Below, piece after piece: positions 1,894 through 43,556 of a DNA stretch of 64,000 nucleotides. The position numbers and the translations under genes were made by a program. Source of the DNA: a virus; the IMG/VR virus record IMGVR_UViG_3300034160_000027, positions 5,099-69,098 of that record; one strand, written 5' to 3'. The notes below the pieces were generated by a model that saw only the letters and a list, made by a program, of their open reading frames with translations, made no database searches and had not been told where the DNA came from. Position 1 is the stretch's first letter; each line of letters begins with the position of its first letter.

Positions 1894-2270
1894 GCGCGAC
1901 GTTTCCTCCAGAAGCGTGGGTGGTAGTGCACACTGCCTACCGTAACGCGATAGACGCAGCGGGCGCCACGGCTGAGATACGAGTGAGGGGAGCAGACGGG
2001 GCGCTGCTTTCTACCGTCCCATTGTTGTTCCCGTGCGCCACAATTGATCTGGCTACGGGGAGGTTAACGTTCGAGGTAGGCGCCCGAGATGAAGATGCGG
2101 CAGCGTCCGGAAGAGCCACGACAGTCCAAGTGTGTAGCCACGTGGGGTTCGTGTGGGGCACTTACACGTGCGCTGCCGGAACTACGCCGGTGGTTAATAC
2201 CGCGGTGTTCCGGTCTCTTGATATCATAGCGGGGCAACCCGTTGAACTGTTGAGCTTTACTATCGGCTAA
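1890..2270 (+). CDS. Small minor tail protein
   Basis: ATGA overlap with the upstream gene; beta-rich 126 aa; DAAASGRAT motif of the kind seen in small virion proteins. Confidence 0.6.
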   Translation: MSATFPPEAWVVVHTAYRNAIDAAGATAEIRVRGADGALLSTVPLLFPCATIDLATGRLTFEVGARDEDAAASGRATTVQVCSHVGFVWGTYTCAAGTTPVVNTAVFRSLDIIAGQPVELLSFTIG

Positions 2271-2285
2271 CATGAGAATGAGCAA

Positions 2286-2675
2286 ATGGCTATATCTTGG
2301 ACTCTCGTAGATAAGATCGCGGCCAATATGGGTCGCCTAACACGCCTACAGCAAGGCACGGGGGTAGCCGGATTCGGCCTATACAGTGCCTCTAACGTGC
2401 TGCTGGCTACCTTCGCCGTAGACACGGCTGCGTCAAGTGTAGTCACCGATACCGGAGATTTGGTGCTAGCCAATGCTTCTGGGGCCGTTGGCGTTGCTGC
2501 TGGAGTCGCTGTTACCGCTAAGCTCCAGGCTCGCGATGGAGGGGTGCTGGTGGATGCTATCCCCGTGGCACAGGGGGTAGTAGCGGTAGCGCAAATGTTA
2601 GTGGTGGACAGCACCACCATAACGGTAAGCGGCCCCCTGACGTTAGTCTCTGCATACATTGTAGCCTACCCGTAG
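2286..2675 (+). CDS. Small minor tail protein (possible distant paralog of 1890..2270)
   Basis: Similar size, composition and layout to the upstream gene; within the tail operon. Confidence 0.55.
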   Translation: MAISWTLVDKIAANMGRLTRLQQGTGVAGFGLYSASNVLLATFAVDTAASSVVTDTGDLVLANASGAVGVAAGVAVTAKLQARDGGVLVDAIPVAQGVVAVAQMLVVDSTTITVSGPLTLVSAYIVAYP

Positions 2676-2683
2676 CCACCTTA

Positions 2684-3514
2684 ATGTCCTCCGTGACGTT
2701 TTCTTGGAGACTGGCAAGTTCTGCTATCGTGTCGGGAACCGTCACGATAGACCAGGACAGCCGTCTACTGGTGTACAGTGGACAGGTGGTATGCCGTGAA
2801 ACGGTGGTGGCTACCATACCTCCTCTGCGCACAGGGGACACGCTGACTGTCGGTAGTGCGGTACTGTCCGTACAGGAGCACGGCCAAATAGTACAGTATC
2901 TAGGCTCGCGTCCGACGTTAGGCGTGGCACTAGGCTCTAACGAAGTCCCAGACCCTAACCCAGACCCTGATCCTGATCCGCCCCCTCTCACCCCTCCGGA
3001 CCAGACTTGGGCCTACGGCCCAGTAAGTTCCAACATCACCGTGTCTTACTTCGGCTCCGAGGTACGCGCTAGCAGCACTGCGCCAGGCGTGGCCTTCTAC
3101 CGCTGGGCGTTGGCCATTGCCAATGTGGTCAGTGCCAAGGCGTACTGGGAGTTCGTTGTTGCCGGGGCCTCTACGACTACCTACGGTGGATTTGGCGTGG
3201 GGCCTTGCTCGGTCGACACCGGGGGCCGGCCAGGAGTCGGCACGAACCCCGGCTGTATGCTGTATTGGGAGGGCGGTGAGGCAGCGGTGTGGTGCGACGG
3301 CACCGAGCACGCGGTAGACGCGCCCGCTGAGCCAACTCGAATCGGGGTTGGTATTGAGGTCATGACTAGCGAGGTCTGTCACGTCGTGTTTTATAGTAGC
3401 GGGGTTGCGCTTAATGCCGAGCCTTTTGCGATGATCCTGGAAGGGTCGATTGTCGTGCCGGTGGTCTGCGCCCTCAACGCCAATGCAGTATTCACACTGG
3501 ATGACCGGGTATGA
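2684..3514 (+). CDS. Virion protein with Pro/Asp linker and C-terminal SPRY/lectin-like beta domain
   Basis: PDPNPDPDPDPPP linker followed by KAYWEF...GFGVG...IGVGI...VFY, a SPRY-like pattern. Confidence 0.5.
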   Translation: MSSVTFSWRLASSAIVSGTVTIDQDSRLLVYSGQVVCRETVVATIPPLRTGDTLTVGSAVLSVQEHGQIVQYLGSRPTLGVALGSNEVPDPNPDPDPDPPPLTPPDQTWAYGPVSSNITVSYFGSEVRASSTAPGVAFYRWALAIANVVSAKAYWEFVVAGASTTTYGGFGVGPCSVDTGGRPGVGTNPGCMLYWEGGEAAVWCDGTEHAVDAPAEPTRIGVGIEVMTSEVCHVVFYSSGVALNAEPFAMILEGSIVVPVVCALNANAVFTLDDRV

Positions 3515-4296
3515 GCATCCAACACCTACCGGACGGCTATACGGCGCTGCGGTCGATTCCGGGTGCGCGCTATGACGCGCAAAATATCTGTATTGCAGAC
3601 GATAGCATACAAATCGATTGGATATGGCCTTCTCCAGGCTACGTCACAAAAGCGCAAACACTCTCCCGCGCGAATGGGGGCAGCGTAGAAGGCGGCAATA
3701 GGCCACCTGCGTGGCGGCCGAGTGGCGCACCCCCACAGCGGGGACCGATAATGACCTGGAACGTCTACGAAAACAGCCCGTCGCGCAACAGTTACTACGA
3801 TTGGGTGAACAACCAGGGTTACGCCTTTAGGCTGGACGCAATAAGGATACAAGGGGCCGGTCCAGTAGGCACCAACGGCAGCGCCACCGGGGCTAACCCG
3901 AATACGAATACGATGGGCATAACCCCAGGCCAAGGTATTAGCGGTGCCTGGGAGTGGAGTTCGATGGGTACGGATGCGCAGATAGAAGACGCTAGGGTTG
4001 AGGTTAGGATCGCGGCGGCTACGGGGTCTTTTACATCGCTTGCATTGTCTGACACTAAGCTCATCGACAGTATGACTGGATCATGGGTCACAGAGACATA
4101 CGACGGACTCCCAGCGCAGACCCCAGCGCAGACTCCGATCAACAAGACCTTTATTCCTACGCTGGCAGCCGGGTCGCGAATTGTTCCAATCAATGGTCGG
4201 GTGCGTATCCAATTTTATCAACTCGGGGGGATTACGGAAAGCCCGAGTGCCGTGTTATCCGATCTGACAATTCAGCTTACTGTCACCCCTGTGTGA
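3511..4296 (+). CDS. Putative tail/virion protein
   Basis: Translationally coupled (ATGA); G/S/T-rich; tail operon context. Confidence 0.5.
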   Translation: MSIQHLPDGYTALRSIPGARYDAQNICIADDSIQIDWIWPSPGYVTKAQTLSRANGGSVEGGNRPPAWRPSGAPPQRGPIMTWNVYENSPSRNSYYDWVNNQGYAFRLDAIRIQGAGPVGTNGSATGANPNTNTMGITPGQGISGAWEWSSMGTDAQIEDARVEVRIAAATGSFTSLALSDTKLIDSMTGSWVTETYDGLPAQTPAQTPINKTFIPTLAAGSRIVPINGRVRIQFYQLGGITESPSAVLSDLTIQLTVTPV

Positions 4297-4311: not shown

Positions 4312-5301
4312 GTGGCTTGTCCCACAACACTCTGTACCATCGCGCGGCCGGCCGAGCAGCAAGGGCTCACCGTCCTCACCGCTCCGGCTCCGTCGCTCCT
4401 GGCGCTGGGAACCGTGCCCCCTGTGGTGGCTGCGCGGGTGCAGTTGAGCGCGCCTGCCCCCGTGCTGTACGCCTTCGGGAGCACGATCCCGCCGGTCGGT
4501 GCACGAGTGCAGTTGAGCGCGCCTGCCCCCGTGCTGTACGCCTTCGGGAGCACGATCCCGCCGGTCGGTGCACGAGTGCAGTTGAGCGCGCCTGCCCCCG
4601 TGCTGTACGCCTTCGGGAGCACGATCCCGCCGGTCGGTGCACGAGTGCAGTTGAGCGCGCCTGCCCCCGTGCTGTACGCCTTCGGGAGCACGATTACCGG
4701 TGCTGTGCGTGCGCGGGCCTTGTTGGAACCTCCCGCGCCCTTGCTGTTCGGTGTGGGGGTAGGGAACGGGCAGTCCTTGATAGGAGAGTCGTACTTACTA
4801 TTTAGCATGGTAGCTAATAGCTTTGTTGTAGCGTCTGACGGACTTATCGGGAGCGCGTCTCTGACCTCATCTAACGTAGGGGTAGGCACCGTAGCAGGGA
4901 GCGGGCTAATCGGGCCATCAAGAGTCCTGTTCACTACTTCCGGAGATGTGTGGGCTGTCAACGGTTTCCCCCCTCCGATGGTAGAAGGGTACGGGTACAC
5001 TCGTCCGTCTGGCCTAGTGCGTACTCCATATGCTTCTGGGAGGACTAGGCAGCGTAGGCAATGGCGTAATGGATTTAGACAAGCTACGGTCAGTTTTGAT
5101 ATTGACCGCGGCATTCTAGGCGACGTTGAAAGGTTTATCAGTTTAAAGGGGTACGAGTGGTTCAGCATGGGTCTGATCACTGGCGATAACGTCAGCAGCG
5201 TGTTGGAGACGCACACTGTAAGAATTATTGGAAACCCGTCAAAAGGCAATGTCTACGGGAGTCAGATGACACTCTCCTTAAAGATAGAGATAGCTTCATG
5301 A
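4312..5301 (+). CDS. Tail protein: 23-aa repeats fused to a gpM/Dit-like C-terminal domain
   Basis: Repeat VQLSAPAPVLYAFGSTIPPVGAR; the C-terminal GYGY....GLVRT...SGRTRQRR...WF pattern resembles distal tail proteins. Confidence 0.6.
   Translation: MACPTTLCTIARPAEQQGLTVLTAPAPSLLALGTVPPVVAARVQLSAPAPVLYAFGSTIPPVGARVQLSAPAPVLYAFGSTIPPVGARVQLSAPAPVLYAFGSTIPPVGARVQLSAPAPVLYAFGSTITGAVRARALLEPPAPLLFGVGVGNGQSLIGESYLLFSMVANSFVVASDGLIGSASLTSSNVGVGTVAGSGLIGPSRVLFTTSGDVWAVNGFPPPMVEGYGYTRPSGLVRTPYASGRTRQRRQWRNGFRQATVSFDIDRGILGDVERFISLKGYEWFSMGLITGDNVSSVLETHTVRIIGNPSKGNVYGSQMTLSLKIEIAS
4438..4694 (+). repeat. 69-bp perfect tandem repeat, about 3.7 copies
   Basis: Units start at 4438, 4507, 4576 and 4645 (gtgcagttgagcgcgcctgcc...), identical at the DNA level. 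Confidence 0.95.
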
Positions 5302-15162: not shown

Positions 15163-16117
15163 TTGACCGATACGCTTGAATGATGTCGCCTACTTCGCAT
15201 AGAAACCGTTGTTCCATGGTACGGATGCCGACTCTGAACCACACCCACGCAGCAGAGAGCCAGGCAAGGGCGATGGCGGCATAATCCACTAGGTCGAAGT
15301 GATGTGTCCACCCGGCTAGTAGAGCCAGGAGTAAGAACGCAATCGGTGTCGTCTTCATTTACTTCACCATAAGGACAGCGTGGCGTAATGCGCCGAGACG
15401 CTTACCCACCCTATCAGCCAGAAACGCTTCTACCTGAAGCATTTGATTATACGTCAGTGGAGCATCTTTGGCGATGACACGCTCCTCCAGCCAGACAACG
15501 TAGACCGCGGGGGACAAATCCAGCGGGAGTCTGCACGATTCCTCAAACGCGTCTCGTAGGCGCTCGTGTTCCAGACTTGCGTCAAAGGATGTGAGTTCTT
15601 CGCGTGTCACGGTTTTTCTCCTGCACGGGATGCCTCAACTTTACGTTTAGCCCAGTGCAACGCCCGTGTATTCCATTCAAACACTTTCTTCAGCGTCCAA
15701 GCAACGGGCTCGGACCCTACGGAGTATACCCTATCCAACAATATGCAGCGAGAATCTTCGCGCAGGGCTATGACAAACTCTACGTCATAGTCAGCGTACT
15801 CCGGGTCGCTGAGAATCCTCAGTAGGTCAGAAACCTTTACACCGTTTGGTTCCGTCACTTTTACGCCTCCTTCTGCGTTCGTAGGTCTCGGCGCTACCCC
15901 GGAAACTCTGCGCAGAGGAAGTCGATCATGTCCTGCGCTTTATCAGCGATGCGCTGACTACGTTCTCGCTCATCGCACACGTCCATGCGGGCCATCCCGT
16001 AGTGGCGGCTGCCAATGTTGTGCAGGGCGTCGATGATCCGTCGAATAGCAGAATACTCAAGGCCGGTCTGAACGTCGTGCGGGGTTGATTCAAAGGGGTG
16101 CATGGTGTTCTCCTACG

Positions 16118-17566
16118 TTAAACAGCGATGGGCGCTTTGATCGCCGGCCAAGGGTTATAGCCGACTAACTTGCAGTCGGCCAGCGTATAGTCGAAAATCG
16201 ACTCTTTCCGGTTCAGTGCAAGCTGTGGAAGTGGCATAGGTTCTCTCGCCAGTTGAGAGAACACGATATCCGGGTGGATGTGGTTCTGGTACAGATGAAG
16301 GTCTCCGAAATGGATGATAAGGTCGCCAACAAGCATGTTGCATTGCTGTGCCAGCATGTGCGTAAGCAACGCGTAACTGGCGATATTGTAGGGAACGCCG
16401 AGGAACGCGTCCGCGCTGCGTTGATCCATGCGCAATGATAACCGACCCACCGGCGCGGTGCCGAACATATACGGCTCACGCTCCTTTGGCGTCAGTGGAT
16501 CGACGTTACACTGGAATAGGCAATGGCACGGAGCGAGTGCCATGAAAGGCAAGTCCGCGGGGTTCCACGCTATAACAACGTGTCGGCGAGAGAACGGGTT
16601 AGCCCGCAGGTTATTGATGAGTTCGCTTATTTGGTCTACGCCCGGTTCCCCGTTAACAGAAAAGCCCCTCCACTGTTTTCCGTATATAGGTCCTAAATCT
16701 CCGCGGTTTATGAGTCTCCTCCGGATTCTAGTGTTAGAGTGCGGCACGTATTTTTGAAATGCCCACCCCCGTGCTGTTACATTGTTCCCTTTTAAGATGG
16801 CAGGCAAGCCCTCGGTAACAAACCTATGGATAGATGTTTGGCTAATGCCGCAGGCGTTAGACGCTGCTCTCAGACCTTCATACACTTTTGTTACACCTTC
16901 CGGGTTGGTTATGAGGATATATTCACTATGCACATTTTCTTCCTTCGGAAGCCATATGCACGTGTCTGGCCCGTACTGGTTAGACCCGTAGTAGTCTTTA
17001 TCAAGTTCGTATCCGGTCCAGTCGTCCCTTTTATATTCCCAATGAGGTATCATTTGTACATCAGAAACAAACGCCTCTACGTCTTCCCATCTCTCGCATA
17101 CTGTAACGCCTTTTTCTCCGTAATGTTTGTAGTTGTGGGCTCGCACGTTGTAGCAACGATCAAACATCTTGGCCCATGTACTCCTTAGCTTGTCCTTCAC
17201 AGTCCCTTTGGTGTACCCTGGAGACGCGTGCGCGCTGCTCAATCTCTTTTGGGACGGCCGCGCCGGTTCCCTTACGGAGACTGTAGAAAAGCCCCTGTCA
17301 TAGAACCAAGGTCTCTTCCATTCACTCCAGATAGTAACGCCCTGGTCCTCCAGTGTGCGGCTGTTCGTATCGCCACTCAAAAACCAGATTAACTCTGCCA
17401 CCACTGACTTCCAATGAATCTTCTTGGTCGTCAAGAGCGGGAAGCCGGCCGTCAGGTCGAAGCGAATCTGCCGGCCAAAGACAGACCGCGTGCCAGTGCC
17501 CGTGCGGTCCTCCTTGTTACGTCCGTTGTCGAGGACGTCACGGAGAAGATCGTGGTATTGTTTCAT
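16118..17566 (-). CDS. thyA: Thymidylate synthase with a 205-aa in-frame HNH endonuclease insertion
   Basis: Motifs DRTGTGT, FPLLTTKK, ELIWFL.G.TN, GDLGPIYG.QWR, SRR, ALAPCH, QRSAD.FLGVPYN and HLY.NH. Confidence 0.95.
   Translation of the reverse strand: MKQYHDLLRDVLDNGRNKEDRTGTGTRSVFGRQIRFDLTAGFPLLTTKKIHWKSVVAELIWFLSGDTNSRTLEDQGVTIWSEWKRPWFYDRGFSTVSVREPARPSQKRLSSAHASPGYTKGTVKDKLRSTWAKMFDRCYNVRAHNYKHYGEKGVTVCERWEDVEAFVSDVQMIPHWEYKRDDWTGYELDKDYYGSNQYGPDTCIWLPKEENVHSEYILITNPEGVTKVYEGLRAASNACGISQTSIHRFVTEGLPAILKGNNVTARGWAFQKYVPHSNTRIRRRLINRGDLGPIYGKQWRGFSVNGEPGVDQISELINNLRANPFSRRHVVIAWNPADLPFMALAPCHCLFQCNVDPLTPKEREPYMFGTAPVGRLSLRMDQRSADAFLGVPYNIASYALLTHMLAQQCNMLVGDLIIHFGDLHLYQNHIHPDIVFSQLAREPMPLPQLALNRKESIFDYTLADCKLVGYNPWPAIKAPIAV
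16703..17317 (-). mobile_element. HNH + NUMOD1/HTH-type homing endonuclease embedded in-frame in thyA
   Basis: W..M..RCYN....YKHYG.KGV.VCERW...F, LDKD, YGPDTCIW....N, then VYEGLRAAS..CGIS..SI; no intein termini visible. Confidence 0.85.
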
Positions 17567-17817
17567 GGCGCGTCTCTAAGTGCAGAAGGTTTCACCATAT
17601 CTCGTACTGTACGTTCCACCATACTTCGGTAGAACAGTGAATAAGATACGTGTTTTACCACCCAGTAGGCGCCATACAACGCGGCTAGCCCTAGCAGGAT
17701 GAATAGTAAGGCGGGCGCCACGTGCGTTATCAGTACGCTTCTTCTTGTCATTTGAAACTTTGCTCCAAGATGGCGTTTCCAAGCGCCTCGTGCTCTGCCT
17801 TTGAGATACGCCAGCAA
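17563..17817 (-). CDS. Small membrane protein
   Basis: Hydrophobic segment; coupled to the thyA start. Confidence 0.5.
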   Translation of the reverse strand: MLAYLKGRARGAWKRHLGAKFQMTRRSVLITHVAPALLFILLGLAALYGAYWVVKHVSYSLFYRSMVERTVRDMVKPSALRDAP

Positions 17818-18179
17818 CCGATGATGGCTGCGGTAGACTTAGGAATCTCACGTTTCCTGCGCGCCAGTCACCCTCCAGGTCCCTCATCGGTGGTCACGTT
17901 CAACCGAAAGTCACTTATCTGGATGGCTAGCAAATGGTAACGCTTAACCTGAAACGCTGCCATAAAGGCACCGGCCTTCGTTCGCGCTAGAGCCAAGACT
18001 TCAGATATGGTTTTCATGAGTCCAGACATCCTGCGGCAGCGTACAGAATGTTAAGGTACTCTACCGCCCACTCCAGAGCATGGCGATCTGGCATGTTGCG
18101 CACCTTGTAGAAATTGTTAGCCTCCATGTATCGTCTGGCGTCCAGTAGGTTCGTGACTATGCTCATTTAATTTGTCTCT

Positions 18180-26456: not shown

Positions 26457-27103
26457 GACGATTTACTAAACTCAATAATCGCGTTAATGAAAGCCTTCCA
26501 TTGCTCCACGGTGAACTGTAGCTCCCCGTACTCTTGCACGCCGTCAAGGTACAAACCCGTGCTCGTGTACTTAATGTGTGAGTCTTTCCCCTTCGGCGCC
26601 CACCGTGCTCCTCGTATCGACGTGCCCCACTCTATACGGTTTGCGAAGAAGGGCATGTTTACCATGACCAGGAACCATTGGTAGTTATCCGTGTCCTTGA
26701 TATACTCGTACGTGGTACCGTCACTTACCGCCCCGCATACTTCGAGGGCTTTGGTGGCAAATAACTCGTCCATGTCGCCATCGTCAGTCGTGAAGTCGAA
26801 TACAAATGACCCGAGGTAACTGAGTCTAGTAAAATCGTGGTCCTCTTGCGTGGCCACGAAACCTTCTTCCAACGCTTGCCGGTATTTGCTCTCAGGTATC
26901 ATTTTTTCATTCCACCAAAGCCACAGGCCAACAGGCCACAAAGTCAGCACCAACGGTTGTGCGAACCACGCGACTTTACGAGGGCAGTCTTTGTACCAGT
27001 TGTACATTTGCTTGTCTTCCGTGTCTATGCCGGACCAGACGAAAGAACCTACTACTAGGTTAAGAGAGAAAAGCAGAAAGCCGATGACGATACCTGTAGT
27101 CAT
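26453..27103 (-). CDS. Hypothetical protein with N-terminal membrane segment
   Basis: Coupled between the MTase and polymerase genes; contains EWGTSIRGA. Confidence 0.6.
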   Translation of the reverse strand: MTTGIVIGFLLFSLNLVVGSFVWSGIDTEDKQMYNWYKDCPRKVAWFAQPLVLTLWPVGLWLWWNEKMIPESKYRQALEEGFVATQEDHDFTRLSYLGSFVFDFTTDDGDMDELFATKALEVCGAVSDGTTYEYIKDTDNYQWFLVMVNMPFFANRIEWGTSIRGARWAPKGKDSHIKYTSTGLYLDGVQEYGELQFTVEQWKAFINAIIEFSKSS

Positions 27104-28314
27104 TACTTTAACCCCATATATGCACGAATGAACATTTCAGCCAACGGCGCCACGATGGCGTTTCCGTACCCTTCGATCATGCCTTTTGCCCACGGGCCTT
27201 CCGTGCGGAACGGGTGGGTGCCATCGGGGAACAGTGATCCCATATCGACGGCAGTCCGATCAACCAGCGCGGAAGAGCCGGATTCAGCCGGCCGCCACAG
27301 TCCATCCGTGCAGAAGAGCCAATCAGCAATAGCCCATGCACCGTTAACCGGACCGGGCCTTTGCACAACCAGACTTGGCGCCCCAAGAGTCCGTTCGTTG
27401 GCGCTGTGCCGTCCGAGGTCCTGTCCTTCCAGTCCCGCGATGTTGGAGTTGCCCACGAGGCTAGGCACGCCGCCGTTTGGATGTTCAAACCACCCTCCCG
27501 GCCCGCTGAGCCCGCACCCGTTGTCGCCGATGCTGTTGGAGTCGGCCACGAGGTTAGGCACGCTACAGCACTCAGGTCTGGCCCCTTGCTGCGCATTGCC
27601 TCCTGCCGTCCGCCTTCCACCGTGCGCACTGCTTTGTCCGCCAACGAGGCTGTCGGTGTCGGCCAACCCGTCCACTTGACCGCCCCCGGCAACTTCAGCG
27701 CGATCTTGCGCGAGCCGTCCTCGTTCACTCCCTTCACGTAGCAGTGTGTGCTCCCGAGTCCATCGTTCATCAGGGGCGTGGGCCACCCAGTACAGTCGCT
27801 CCCTTTCGTGCGGAGCGCCGACGCACGCAGCATTGGTAACAACCGCCCCTGTGGTGTAATGTGCTCTTTCCAAGTCTGCTTGTACAACGTCGATCCAAGC
27901 GGGGCTACCAGCGTCTTTAAGGACGCCGCTAGAAGGGCCGATAACGTCGGAGGACGAGACCTGTTCTCCGAAGATAACGGGTGGTCGGCAGGCTCGTATG
28001 AGTCTGTAGAAATCAGGCCATAGGTTTCGTTCGTCATCGTGTCCTTTGCGGAGTCCCGCAACTGAGTAGGATTGACATGGGCACGAGCCCGACCAAACAG
28101 GCTCATCATCAGGCCAACCTGCTTTACGCAGTGCATACGACCACACGCCAATGCCCGCAAACATATGCACTTGGCAGAACCATGCGAGGTCTTGTGGTTG
28201 CACGTCAACGATAGATCGCTCGTCTACGACGCCCGGGGCTATCGCGCCCTCCGCGATCAGGTTACGTAGCCATTGAGCGGCGTAGGGGTTTATCTCGTTG
28301 TAGTAGGCTACCAC
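27103..28314 (-). CDS. DNA cytosine-C5 methyltransferase, alpha chain (motifs I-VIII and X)
   Basis: FAGIG (I), SCPCQ (IV), EQV (VI), H.RERLY (VIII) and GYGNAI (X). Confidence 0.9.
   Translation of the reverse strand: MVAYYNEINPYAAQWLRNLIAEGAIAPGVVDERSIVDVQPQDLAWFCQVHMFAGIGVWSYALRKAGWPDDEPVWSGSCPCQSYSVAGLRKGHDDERNLWPDFYRLIRACRPPVIFGEQVSSSDVIGPSSGVLKDAGSPAWIDVVQADLERAHYTTGAVVTNAACVGAPHERERLYWVAHAPDERWTREHTLLREGSERGRLAQDRAEVAGGGQVDGLADTDSLVGGQSSAHGGRRTAGGNAQQGARPECCSVPNLVADSNSIGDNGCGLSGPGGWFEHPNGGVPSLVGNSNIAGLEGQDLGRHSANERTLGAPSLVVQRPGPVNGAWAIADWLFCTDGLWRPAESGSSALVDRTAVDMGSLFPDGTHPFRTEGPWAKGMIEGYGNAIVAPLAEMFIRAYMGLK
27177..28208 (-). CDS. Overlapping out-of-frame beta chain of the C5 MTase (true start probably internal)
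   Basis: Four W[PA]TP repeats and a motif IX-like GRLNP...RWLIGLP in a long alternative frame nested in the alpha gene. Confidence 0.75.
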   Translation of the reverse strand: MTCNHKTSHGSAKCICLRALACGRMHCVKQVGLMMSLFGRARAHVNPTQLRDSAKDTMTNETYGLISTDSYEPADHPLSSENRSRPPTLSALLAASLKTLVAPLGSTLYKQTWKEHITPQGRLLPMLRASALRTKGSDCTGWPTPLMNDGLGSTHCYVKGVNEDGSRKIALKLPGAVKWTGWPTPTASLADKAVRTVEGGRQEAMRSKGPDLSAVACLTSWPTPTASATTGAGSAGREGGLNIQTAACLASWATPTSRDWKDRTSDGTAPTNGLLGRQVWLCKGPVRLTVHGLLLIGSSARMDCGGRLNPALPRWLIGLPSIWDHCSPMAPTRSARKARGQKA

Positions 28315-42398: not shown

Positions 42399-43556
42399 TC
42401 AAAGAAATGTACCGCTAGGACGAACGGACTCTCGATCAGGGCCGGACGCAACAAGGACTGCATCATCCCGCAAAACCTCATACGCTTCTCCTATATTCGA
42501 GTCGGCTGCTTGTGCCCCTGAATTAGCCCACGTTACTGCCAGCCGTGGAGAACGTACTTGACATAAGTCCGCCGTGGTAGCGACTTCGTAGTCCCGAGCT
42601 ATCGCGTATCTCATCTGAGCTATTGACAGCCTAGCATAACGCAGCGCTCCTTGCCACTCATTCGGCGGGTTGGTCCCGTCGGGTAGCGTAGCACCGTCCT
42701 TCTGAAGCACGTGTTCCGCACCTTCTCTTGCAGGGCCCTTCACTGGTACCCAGTCTAAGTACATTGGCCCCGGGCCGTGCCTAGTGAGGTACGTCCGAGT
42801 GACGTAGATCGGCTTAACAGGAATCCGCGACCTGGCGAGAAGCGTGCACACGTTTGTCATTCCAGTATTTGACGGGGTGACGTACGGAAAGAACCCGCTG
42901 TTCTGGTCAAGCAGCAGCCCTTGTGAGCCCTCAAAGATGCACGGGTTGCGGGTGACATCCTCGTCGTTTCGAATCGTGACCCGGCCCATTAACTCTTCTA
43001 CCGCTGCGGCGTAATGGTGATCGTCACTTGATGCCACAAAGTCCGTCAATAGCGAGTGAAAGATCCGCGCGTGTTTGCACAACGTCAATGCAGCTTGCCT
43101 GCTCGCAAGCACGGCTGTCAGCCGCAAGTCCGGGTACGCAGAGCGGCGTACTGCGTGCGCTACACCATGCCCGACTGACCCGTGGCGCGCGACACCCCGT
43201 GCAACCTCTCGTTGTTGGTTGGCCTCAATATCGGCCGGCACAATAAATCGGGTACGCGGGTCTATGGAGATAAGGGGACGAACGCCAAGACTCTCCAGCA
43301 CACTGACCTCCCGTAAAAGGTACACTGGGTTTATGAGCATGAAACGCGAGATGTGCGTTGGCACGCCCGATAAGGCTCCTGATCCGACTTGGGCGAATGT
43401 AAACGTGCCGTCTGGGCATGTAACAGTATGCCCGGATTGTGACCCCCCGCTGAAGCGGACCACGGTCTCGTGGTTTCCCTGCGACGCCAGATAGTCCACT
43501 ACCTGCCCTTTCCCCTCGTCCCCAAAGCCCGCCCCAATAACTGCGATATGATTCAT
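42399..43556 (-). CDS. Divergent adenylosuccinate-synthetase (PurA)-like ligase
   Basis: GDEGKG, RF.GG.Q.GHT, EGSQG.LLD, FPYVT.S and TRHG.GP are present; the Asp-binding and guanine-specificity motifs are altered. Confidence 0.85.
   Translation of the reverse strand: MNHIAVIGAGFGDEGKGQVVDYLASQGNHETVVRFSGGSQSGHTVTCPDGTFTFAQVGSGALSGVPTHISRFMLINPVYLLREVSVLESLGVRPLISIDPRTRFIVPADIEANQQREVARGVARHGSVGHGVAHAVRRSAYPDLRLTAVLASRQAALTLCKHARIFHSLLTDFVASSDDHHYAAAVEELMGRVTIRNDEDVTRNPCIFEGSQGLLLDQNSGFFPYVTPSNTGMTNVCTLLARSRIPVKPIYVTRTYLTRHGPGPMYLDWVPVKGPAREGAEHVLQKDGATLPDGTNPPNEWQGALRYARLSIAQMRYAIARDYEVATTADLCQVRSPRLAVTWANSGAQAADSNIGEAYEVLRDDAVLVASGPDRESVRPSGTFL

Follow-up and report, generated by a model that had tools for sequence, protein, structure and literature searches.

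An in-frame insert in a phage thymidylate synthase gene

The window analyzed here is a 64,000-nucleotide stretch (positions 5,099 to 69,098) of the IMG/VR virus record IMGVR_UViG_3300034160_000027, a 69-kb record with an estimated completeness of 76%. Within a module of replication and nucleotide-metabolism genes lies thyA, the gene for thymidylate synthase (ThyA), at 16118–17566 on the minus strand, to which all coordinates of this locus refer. The open reading frame (ORF) encodes 482 amino acids in a single uninterrupted frame, and 205 of these (residues 84–288; 615 bases, 16703–17317) form an endonuclease-type insert, the subject of this analysis, which was delimited from the translation and from homologues.

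Pfam Thymidylat_synt covers the 482-residue ORF in two stretches (E = 1.2e-101; 339.8 bits against a cut-off of 24.3), and in the genome record the ThyA match is divided into profile positions 1–84 and 86–266, with no stop codon between them. The NCBIfam model NF002497 likewise matches in two stretches, above its cut-off (357.7 bits against 327). The N-terminal ThyA segment (residues 1–83; 17318–17566) corresponds to positions 1–84 of the ThyA hidden Markov model (HMM) and ends in IWSEW, and the C-terminal segment (residues 289–482 and the stop codon; 16118–16702), which opens with GDLGPIYGKQWR, corresponds to positions 86–279. Translation of 16703–17317 gives 205 residues without a stop between IWSEW and GDLGPIYG, the first being KRPW and the last LINR; by our own arithmetic, the chance of 205 stop-free codons is about (61/64)^205, or ∼5e-5. 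At this position insert-free relatives have just 4–5 residues, for example ADEY in the homologue P0015. The borders can be placed only to within about 3 residues per side, because the "xxP" after EW and the "xx" before GDLGP resemble native loop residues. Contigs of two peat-metagenome runs, which were not flagged as a possible source of the record, run across both junctions with 0 differences, so that the insertion must be real DNA and not an assembly chimera.

The insert can be divided into four parts. Its residues 1–35 (17213–17317) comprise a conserved entry strand of the xVxVxPR type (insert residues 10–14), followed by a lower-confidence loop, for which the predicted local distance difference test score (pLDDT) falls to 69 over residues 21–30 in the model of the insert. 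An N-subdomain (residues 36–132; 16922–17212), labeled "HNH endonuclease" by PHROG, is without a conserved histidine, and is followed by a C-subdomain (residues 130–192; 16742–16930), a helix-turn-helix that resembles the C-terminal DNA-binding domain of I-HmuI. Residues 193–205 (16703–16741) form a conserved exit strand of the xRRxL type (residues 196–200) leading back to GDLGP.

Identity of the insert

Against PHROGs, the insert matches five families labeled as HNH or restriction endonucleases, the best being phrog_2081 (3.9e-32). All of these matches come from the N-terminal 97 residues of the insert core, and the C-terminal 76 residues give none. Motifs of the N-subdomain include W..M..RCYN, Y..YG..GV.V..W, and ELDKDYYGSN.Y.P.TC.W...EN. 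Other resources were less informative: Pfam returned no family for the insert even at E ≤ 10, including neither HNH nor NUMOD1; NCBIfam gave only a stray helix-turn-helix match (0.072); a PDB sequence search with the insert alone gave no match; a single-sequence homologue search at similar lengths found only 3 proteins; and an Atlas search with the insert reached only unnamed clusters.

An AlphaFold model of the insert from a 65-row alignment has a pLDDT of 93.8. The presence of a helix-turn-helix is established, and its assignment to the I-HmuI type is backed by comparison of both structure and profiles. For the N-subdomain, an HNH-like (ββα-metal) fold is suggested by the PHROG labels together with a weak match in fold. 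The earlier note on this DNA had read an HNH nuclease and a NUMOD1/helix-turn-helix domain from the letters alone; the helix-turn-helix was upheld, whereas neither Pfam family could be recovered and the HNH assignment comes down to those labels and that fold match.

I-HmuI (PDB 1U3E), a nicking HNH homing endonuclease from Bacillus phage SPO1, shares this C-terminal helix-turn-helix with the insert. It is encoded as a separate ORF in a group I intron and, according to PMC3384342, uses His75 as its general base; the insert, in contrast, lies in frame in its host enzyme and has LDKD where the histidine would be. This motif, L105-D106-K107-D108 ... N128 in insert numbering, includes residues that are invariant or almost so (D106, K107, D108, and also Y115). 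"HNH nuclease" is thus a label from remote homology, and catalysis by the insert is hypothetical.

These features bear on the main rival explanation, a domesticated DNA-binding domain without catalysis. Here the insert would descend from a homing endonuclease but give ThyA a new property, such as a tether to DNA or to the replication complex, or regulation, and its scatter would come from recombination among thyA alleles instead of homing driven by an endonuclease. We consider this unlikely. The missing histidine speaks for it, as does the survival of the ββα-metal fold as a pure DNA binder in SMAD MH1, a catalytically dead example (PMC3384342). Against it speaks PacI, which apparently uses a tyrosine instead and whose histidine-less active site still cuts (PMC3384342), and so does the near-invariance of D106, K107, D108, and Y115, which is as expected of an active site. 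Tandem domain arrays in two relatives also fit domestication: in P0182 (433 residues) and P0185 (661 residues), the N-subdomain is repeated at least twice, each copy being followed by a stretch that resembles a DNA-binding domain of AP2 type.

Distribution of the module

At E ≤ 0.001, a HMMER search with the insert against 1.84 billion representative sequences returned 30,671 proteins, of which 678 have E ≤ 1e-10. Among the best 150 insert relatives, 96 are ThyA proteins in which the module lies in frame within a loop, at either of two sites. Site A, that of the window, lies at ThyA HMM position ∼85/86, and site B at ∼105/106, about 20 codons downstream. A set of near-complete ThyA proteins contained 61 with the module at site A, 61 with it at site B, and 75 without it. 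When IMG/VR loci were retrieved by means of the LDKDYY motif, the module was in frame with ThyA on both sides in 26 of 28; in two of these 26 (L015 and L029), ThyA ends at HMM position ∼182–185 within the frame. Three cultured phages carry the fusion as one coding sequence: at site A, gene 68 of Enterococcus phage vB_EfaM_A2 and gp285 of Tenacibaculum phage PTm1, and at site B, gene 41 of Bacillus phage Kioshi. The PTm1 gene goes by two names, "thymidylate synthase..." and "HNH endonuclease." The ThyA insert, which the earlier note had treated as a one-off, instead belongs to a large recurrent class that had gone unremarked in phage genomes already deposited.

Some relatives stand alone. These proteins of about 195 residues (P0149, P0152, P0158, P0160, P0166, P0168, P0172, P0193, and P0216) have their initiator methionine at the first strand of the insert and their stop just after its last strand; because they share its borders, the insert can be taken as the whole family unit, with ends that naturally lie close together. 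Sixteen stand-alone relatives form a clade with one site-A insert (support 99). A metagenome scan with P0149 found no relative. In Staphylococcus phages, relatives of the insert are found between pieces of DNA polymerase, with a weak group I match downstream.

A DNA polymerase of Shewanella phage SFCi1 was initially taken for a further host of an in-frame module and was rejected: a BLASTP comparison of its annotated protein with the insert came back empty, the module being a separate, out-of-frame ORF. The locus (KX196154.1; L046 2836–3510) has an apparent DNA polymerase intein, with a cysteine after ...AEN and the end ...VVHN|C, that holds in another frame a 224-residue ORF of the insert's endonuclease family (LDRRDN variant). 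This arrangement is that of an out-of-frame intein-associated endonuclease, as the Gogarten group has reportedly described.

Two other loci deserve mention. In the 237-kb viral contig of L015, the insert-bearing thyA (2195–3457 and 3790–4104) is also broken at ThyA HMM position ∼180, leaving two ORFs about 330 nt apart; the break may mark a second intervening element. At L045 (2938–3696), the N-terminal part of ThyA stops near site A (...IWNEWANDDG) and continues as unrelated sequence, and no C-terminal ThyA part was found within 2.5 kb.

Tests for splicing

No Hint splicing blocks were detected in the insert with Pfam (E ≤ 10) or with the NCBIfam intein models (E ≤ 1). Junctions were then compared in those proteins where they could be anchored by motifs (47 of the 61 at site A and 36 of the 61 at site B; the others were excluded). 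The H[NQ][CST] signature was seen at 0 of 47 and 0 of 36, respectively, and the first residue of the insert is cysteine or serine in 9 of the 47 and in 0 of the 36, the N-terminal nucleophile not being conserved. For RNA splicing, an Rfam scan of 15800–18000 gave no Intron_gpI (RF00028) match at E ≤ 10, a result of low sensitivity and weak when taken alone, since the Staphylococcus phage loci presumed to hold an intron, scanned as a positive control, gave no gathering-level match and scored only 14.7 bits at the E-value threshold. Among contigs mapped to the locus, no joint that removes the insert was seen, with one of the two runs leaving half of the bins uncovered.

The comparative argument is stronger than the Rfam scan. 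The frame is open through the insert into downstream ThyA in 122 diverged proteins that are only 30–60% identical, and conservation at the protein level extends over both junctions. An intron ORF has no reason to keep the frame of the downstream exon, so its retention in 122 proteins speaks against an intron, and only about 31 and 18 codons of the insert lie outside its protein domain. An unrecognized self-splicing element, whether an atypical intein or a group I intron filled by its ORF, would have to escape all of these observations, from the absent Hint match and junction signature to the open frames, and we give it very little credence. In its favor, group I introns whose ORFs are large easily escape detection, as the 14.7 bits illustrate, and odd inteins with non-canonical endonucleases exist (bioRxiv 10.1101/2025.01.02.630785).

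The earlier note had described about 205 stop-free codons between IWSEW and GDLGPIYG in thyA with no visible intein or intron. The former is confirmed by the translation, the split Pfam match, and the homologues, and the latter is borne out by Pfam, NCBIfam, and Rfam, by 0 junction signatures in 83 proteins, and by the 122 open frames; the intein HMM and Rfam group I scans it had proposed as checks thus gave no match, the second at E ≤ 10 and with the low sensitivity stated above.

State of the ThyA enzyme

Conservation was examined in alignments of 30 and 50 sequences in which insert-bearing and insert-free proteins were mixed. Cys347 (in PCH), His348, Arg383, Ser384, Asp386, Asn394, His424, Tyr426, Arg21, Trp80, and Trp83, which we take to be catalytic or substrate-binding residues, with Cys347 as the catalytic cysteine, all fall in invariant columns. 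The full-length fusion was modeled with a pLDDT of 94.2 and a predicted template modeling score (pTM) of 0.89. A model with two copies gives the canonical ThyA dimer, with a score of 0.76 against 0.00 for the best control, agreement between runs in at least 73% of contacts, and a pLDDT of at least 85 for the partner. Among proteins whose solved structures are pairs of one chain, 20 of 30 attain the mark for this score; among those whose structures are single chains, 1 of 23 does. Contacts in the modeled dimer involve only residues 16–35 and 302–422, none of them from the insert, and Arg327 and Arg328 touch Arg383 and Ser384. As ThyA dimers have already been solved, the modeled dimer shows likeness and not binding.

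No second thyA and no thyX could be found in the genome record. From its sequence and models, ThyA looks intact and is probably a working enzyme. The contrary proposal, that the insert simply disrupts ThyA and leaves a dead carrier gene while the host supplies thymidylate, we regard as highly improbable: the catalytic residues are invariant in both alignments, insert-bearing proteins included, the NCBIfam match is above its cut-off, 122 frames run open into ThyA, and the folds are confident. It draws some support from the position of the insert next to Trp80 and Trp83 of the active-site wall, and from the 76% completeness of the record. The confident fixed packing of the insert in the fusion model (pTM 0.89), for its part, would suit a domesticated DNA-binding domain.

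Evidence for mobility

Over its ThyA part, the window protein has 79% identity to the insert-free P0015, 63–71% to other insert-free proteins, and only 48–61% to insert-bearing ones. For ThyA trees, the insert was removed by hmmsearch coordinates before alignment with MAFFT. In the resulting tree, the window protein is sister to P0015 (support 95) in a clade of 73 rows, 72 of which are insert-free, and IQ-TREE on 50 rows gave the same placement. An approximately unbiased test rejected a single clade of all 26 insert-bearing rows (difference in log likelihood 136.6, p = 0.00034), for a group that was named after the tree had been seen and with the 50 rows hand-picked from 197.

The distribution of the two sites points in the same direction. 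Site labels change 34 (A) and 32 (B) times on the ThyA tree, and 9 and 9 times on the tree of the inserts, one side of which has 54 site-B inserts among 59 rows and the other 59 site-A inserts among 84. The labels therefore fit the insert tree and not the ThyA tree, so site preference is inherited with the insert rather than with the host gene, as expected, on these comparisons, of a site-specific homing element. Base composition also sets the insert apart: it is richer in AT than the host gene, with a GC content at third codon positions of 0.537 versus 0.653, and 2.8% of equal-sized segments are as low. The earlier proposal of a homing element in a permissive loop draws support from the conflict between the two trees, the use of two sites, and this foreign GC content.

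These results also bear on domestication. That site tracks insert lineage and not host (9 changes versus 32–34), and that the window ThyA is nested among insert-free enzymes, which would require repeated site-specific insertion, are both against it, as is the presence of relatives at intron and intein positions. On the other side, inserts are deeply diverged, at 30–47% identity, and are nevertheless kept in 122 ThyA proteins.

Proposed origin and mode of action

It is probable, in our assessment, that the insert is a non-splicing, evolutionarily mobile homing-endonuclease module, related to I-HmuI, that persists as a surface domain in a ThyA that still works; as a hypothesis from sequence, the product would be a bifunctional thymidylate synthase–nuclease. 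The basis in sequence and comparison is the open frame, the domain identities, the recurrence at two sites, the tree conflict, the base composition, and the conserved residues, and the fold and dimer are taken from models; nuclease activity, target site, present-day mobility, and ThyA activity are what we infer from these.

On this account, the module would have invaded a surface loop of ThyA right after IWSEW and would be removed from neither RNA nor protein. It would be translated within ThyA and fold as a separate domain, with its first and last strands joining its ends so that ThyA keeps its fold, its active site, and its dimer interface. Over evolution it would move between thyA alleles, as a site-A lineage, to which the window belongs, and a site-B lineage. 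The mechanism would be that of standard homing: in insert-free thyA, the fusion may recognize the conserved stretch between sites A and B that encodes GDLGPxYGxQWR and nick or cut nearby, whereupon repair from the invaded allele would copy the insert in. The invaded allele would be immune because its own target site is disrupted, and expression of the module would come free with that of thyA.

Beside the points already given in favor of splicing and of disruption, three findings weigh against this account. No conserved histidine is present in the insert family, in which the pairing of a catalytic histidine with an asparagine or histidine metal ligand was not found. With respect to recent activity, the nearest insert to that of the window is only 47% identical, and no insert-free allele of the window phage was seen in the mapped contigs. 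A search of IMG/VR found no close relative of the window thyA either, the best being 47% identical. The earlier note's overall interpretation is partly supported: as to a non-splicing, mobile element in a permissive loop, and as to a ThyA part that looks intact, given the invariant residues, the NCBIfam match above cut-off, and the confident models. The nuclease role it assigned to the insert is a hypothesis, the expected histidine being absent.

A more far-reaching version can be offered only tentatively, and we find it rather doubtful. Here homing endonucleases would have, in addition to introns and inteins, a third lifestyle in essential genes: the module would be tolerated on the surface of the host enzyme as one of its domains, without splicing and without a promoter or start codon of its own. 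Insert-bearing ThyA proteins would then make up a large class that is actively homing, in two lineages each specific to its site, and the obligate ThyA dimer would pair two nickase-type modules, resulting in double-strand breaks in the insert-free thyA of rival phages or of the host.

Relation to known systems

The td and thyA group I introns (I-TevI, I-BmoI) share with the insert both the target gene and the logic of a homing element in the conserved coding sequence of thymidylate synthase. These introns splice as RNA, have GIY-YIG enzymes as separate ORFs, and lie elsewhere in the gene. In Lactobacillus casei thymidylate synthase, a "small domain" of about 50 extra residues is tolerated in the loop region; site B is in that region and site A about 20 residues upstream, and the small domain is not known to be related to endonucleases. 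Inteins with HNH endonucleases are also translated in frame in a host protein (bioRxiv 10.1101/2025.01.02.630785); they excise themselves via Hint domains, whereas neither Hint blocks nor the residues expected at intein junctions are present in the ThyA insert.

The ShiLan insertion is the closest precedent. According to PMC11855218, the ShiLan domain and a "lone LAGLIDADG" in actinophage DNA methylases resemble the ThyA insert in an open host frame, no detectable intein or intron, a disjunct distribution, and a predicted loop-out. In the ShiLan case the HNH enzyme is encoded in another frame and the in-frame product has no recognizable fold, whereas in ThyA the endonuclease-type fold is itself in frame; ThyA also differs as host, in having two insertion sites, and in extending over hundreds of protein clusters. 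No account of an in-frame endonuclease module in ThyA was found in the literature searched, subscription journals and supplements being outside its scope. The fusion sequences are public but unremarked.

Other features of the locus and window

Within the insert, a Shine–Dalgarno-like AAGGAG (17186–17181) lies 13 nt 5′ of an in-frame ATG (Met134, 17167–17165), making 17165–17186 a candidate internal start. Gene callers begin several relatives (P0122, P0137, P0202, and P0215) at the equivalent of Met134, and it may be speculated that the AAGGAG yields an internal product. The other reading frames of the insert held nothing suggestive, and no second copy of the insert was found in the genome record.

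Elsewhere in the window, 42399–43556 (minus strand) encodes a PurZ-like homologue of adenylosuccinate synthetase (phrog_1211, "2-aminooxy adenylosuccinate synthetase," 4e-56; Pfam Adenylsucc_synt, 4.4e-41), and the phage may replace adenine by 2-aminoadenine. That base, if present, would bear on which DNA the endonucleases of the phage can cut. A 403-residue C5 DNA methylase is encoded at 27103–28314 (minus strand); Pfam matches only residues 75–186 and phrog_363 (327 positions) spans residues 1–402, and from this mismatch the methylase may hold extra segments.

Significance

The textbook view, to our knowledge, is that conserved genes can harbor a homing endonuclease gene only where it is removed by means of an intron or intein. 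An endonuclease-type module that is retained in the mature enzyme contrasts with this requirement. The architecture has been missed by both names in use, as long phage "thymidylate synthase" genes are labeled either plain ThyA or "HNH endonuclease." If the module cuts DNA, selfish elements would have a third and simple strategy at their disposal, the insertion would be a natural case of a domain placed within an enzyme, and the family would provide compact modules of I-HmuI-like character that bind and nick DNA and whose target genes are known.
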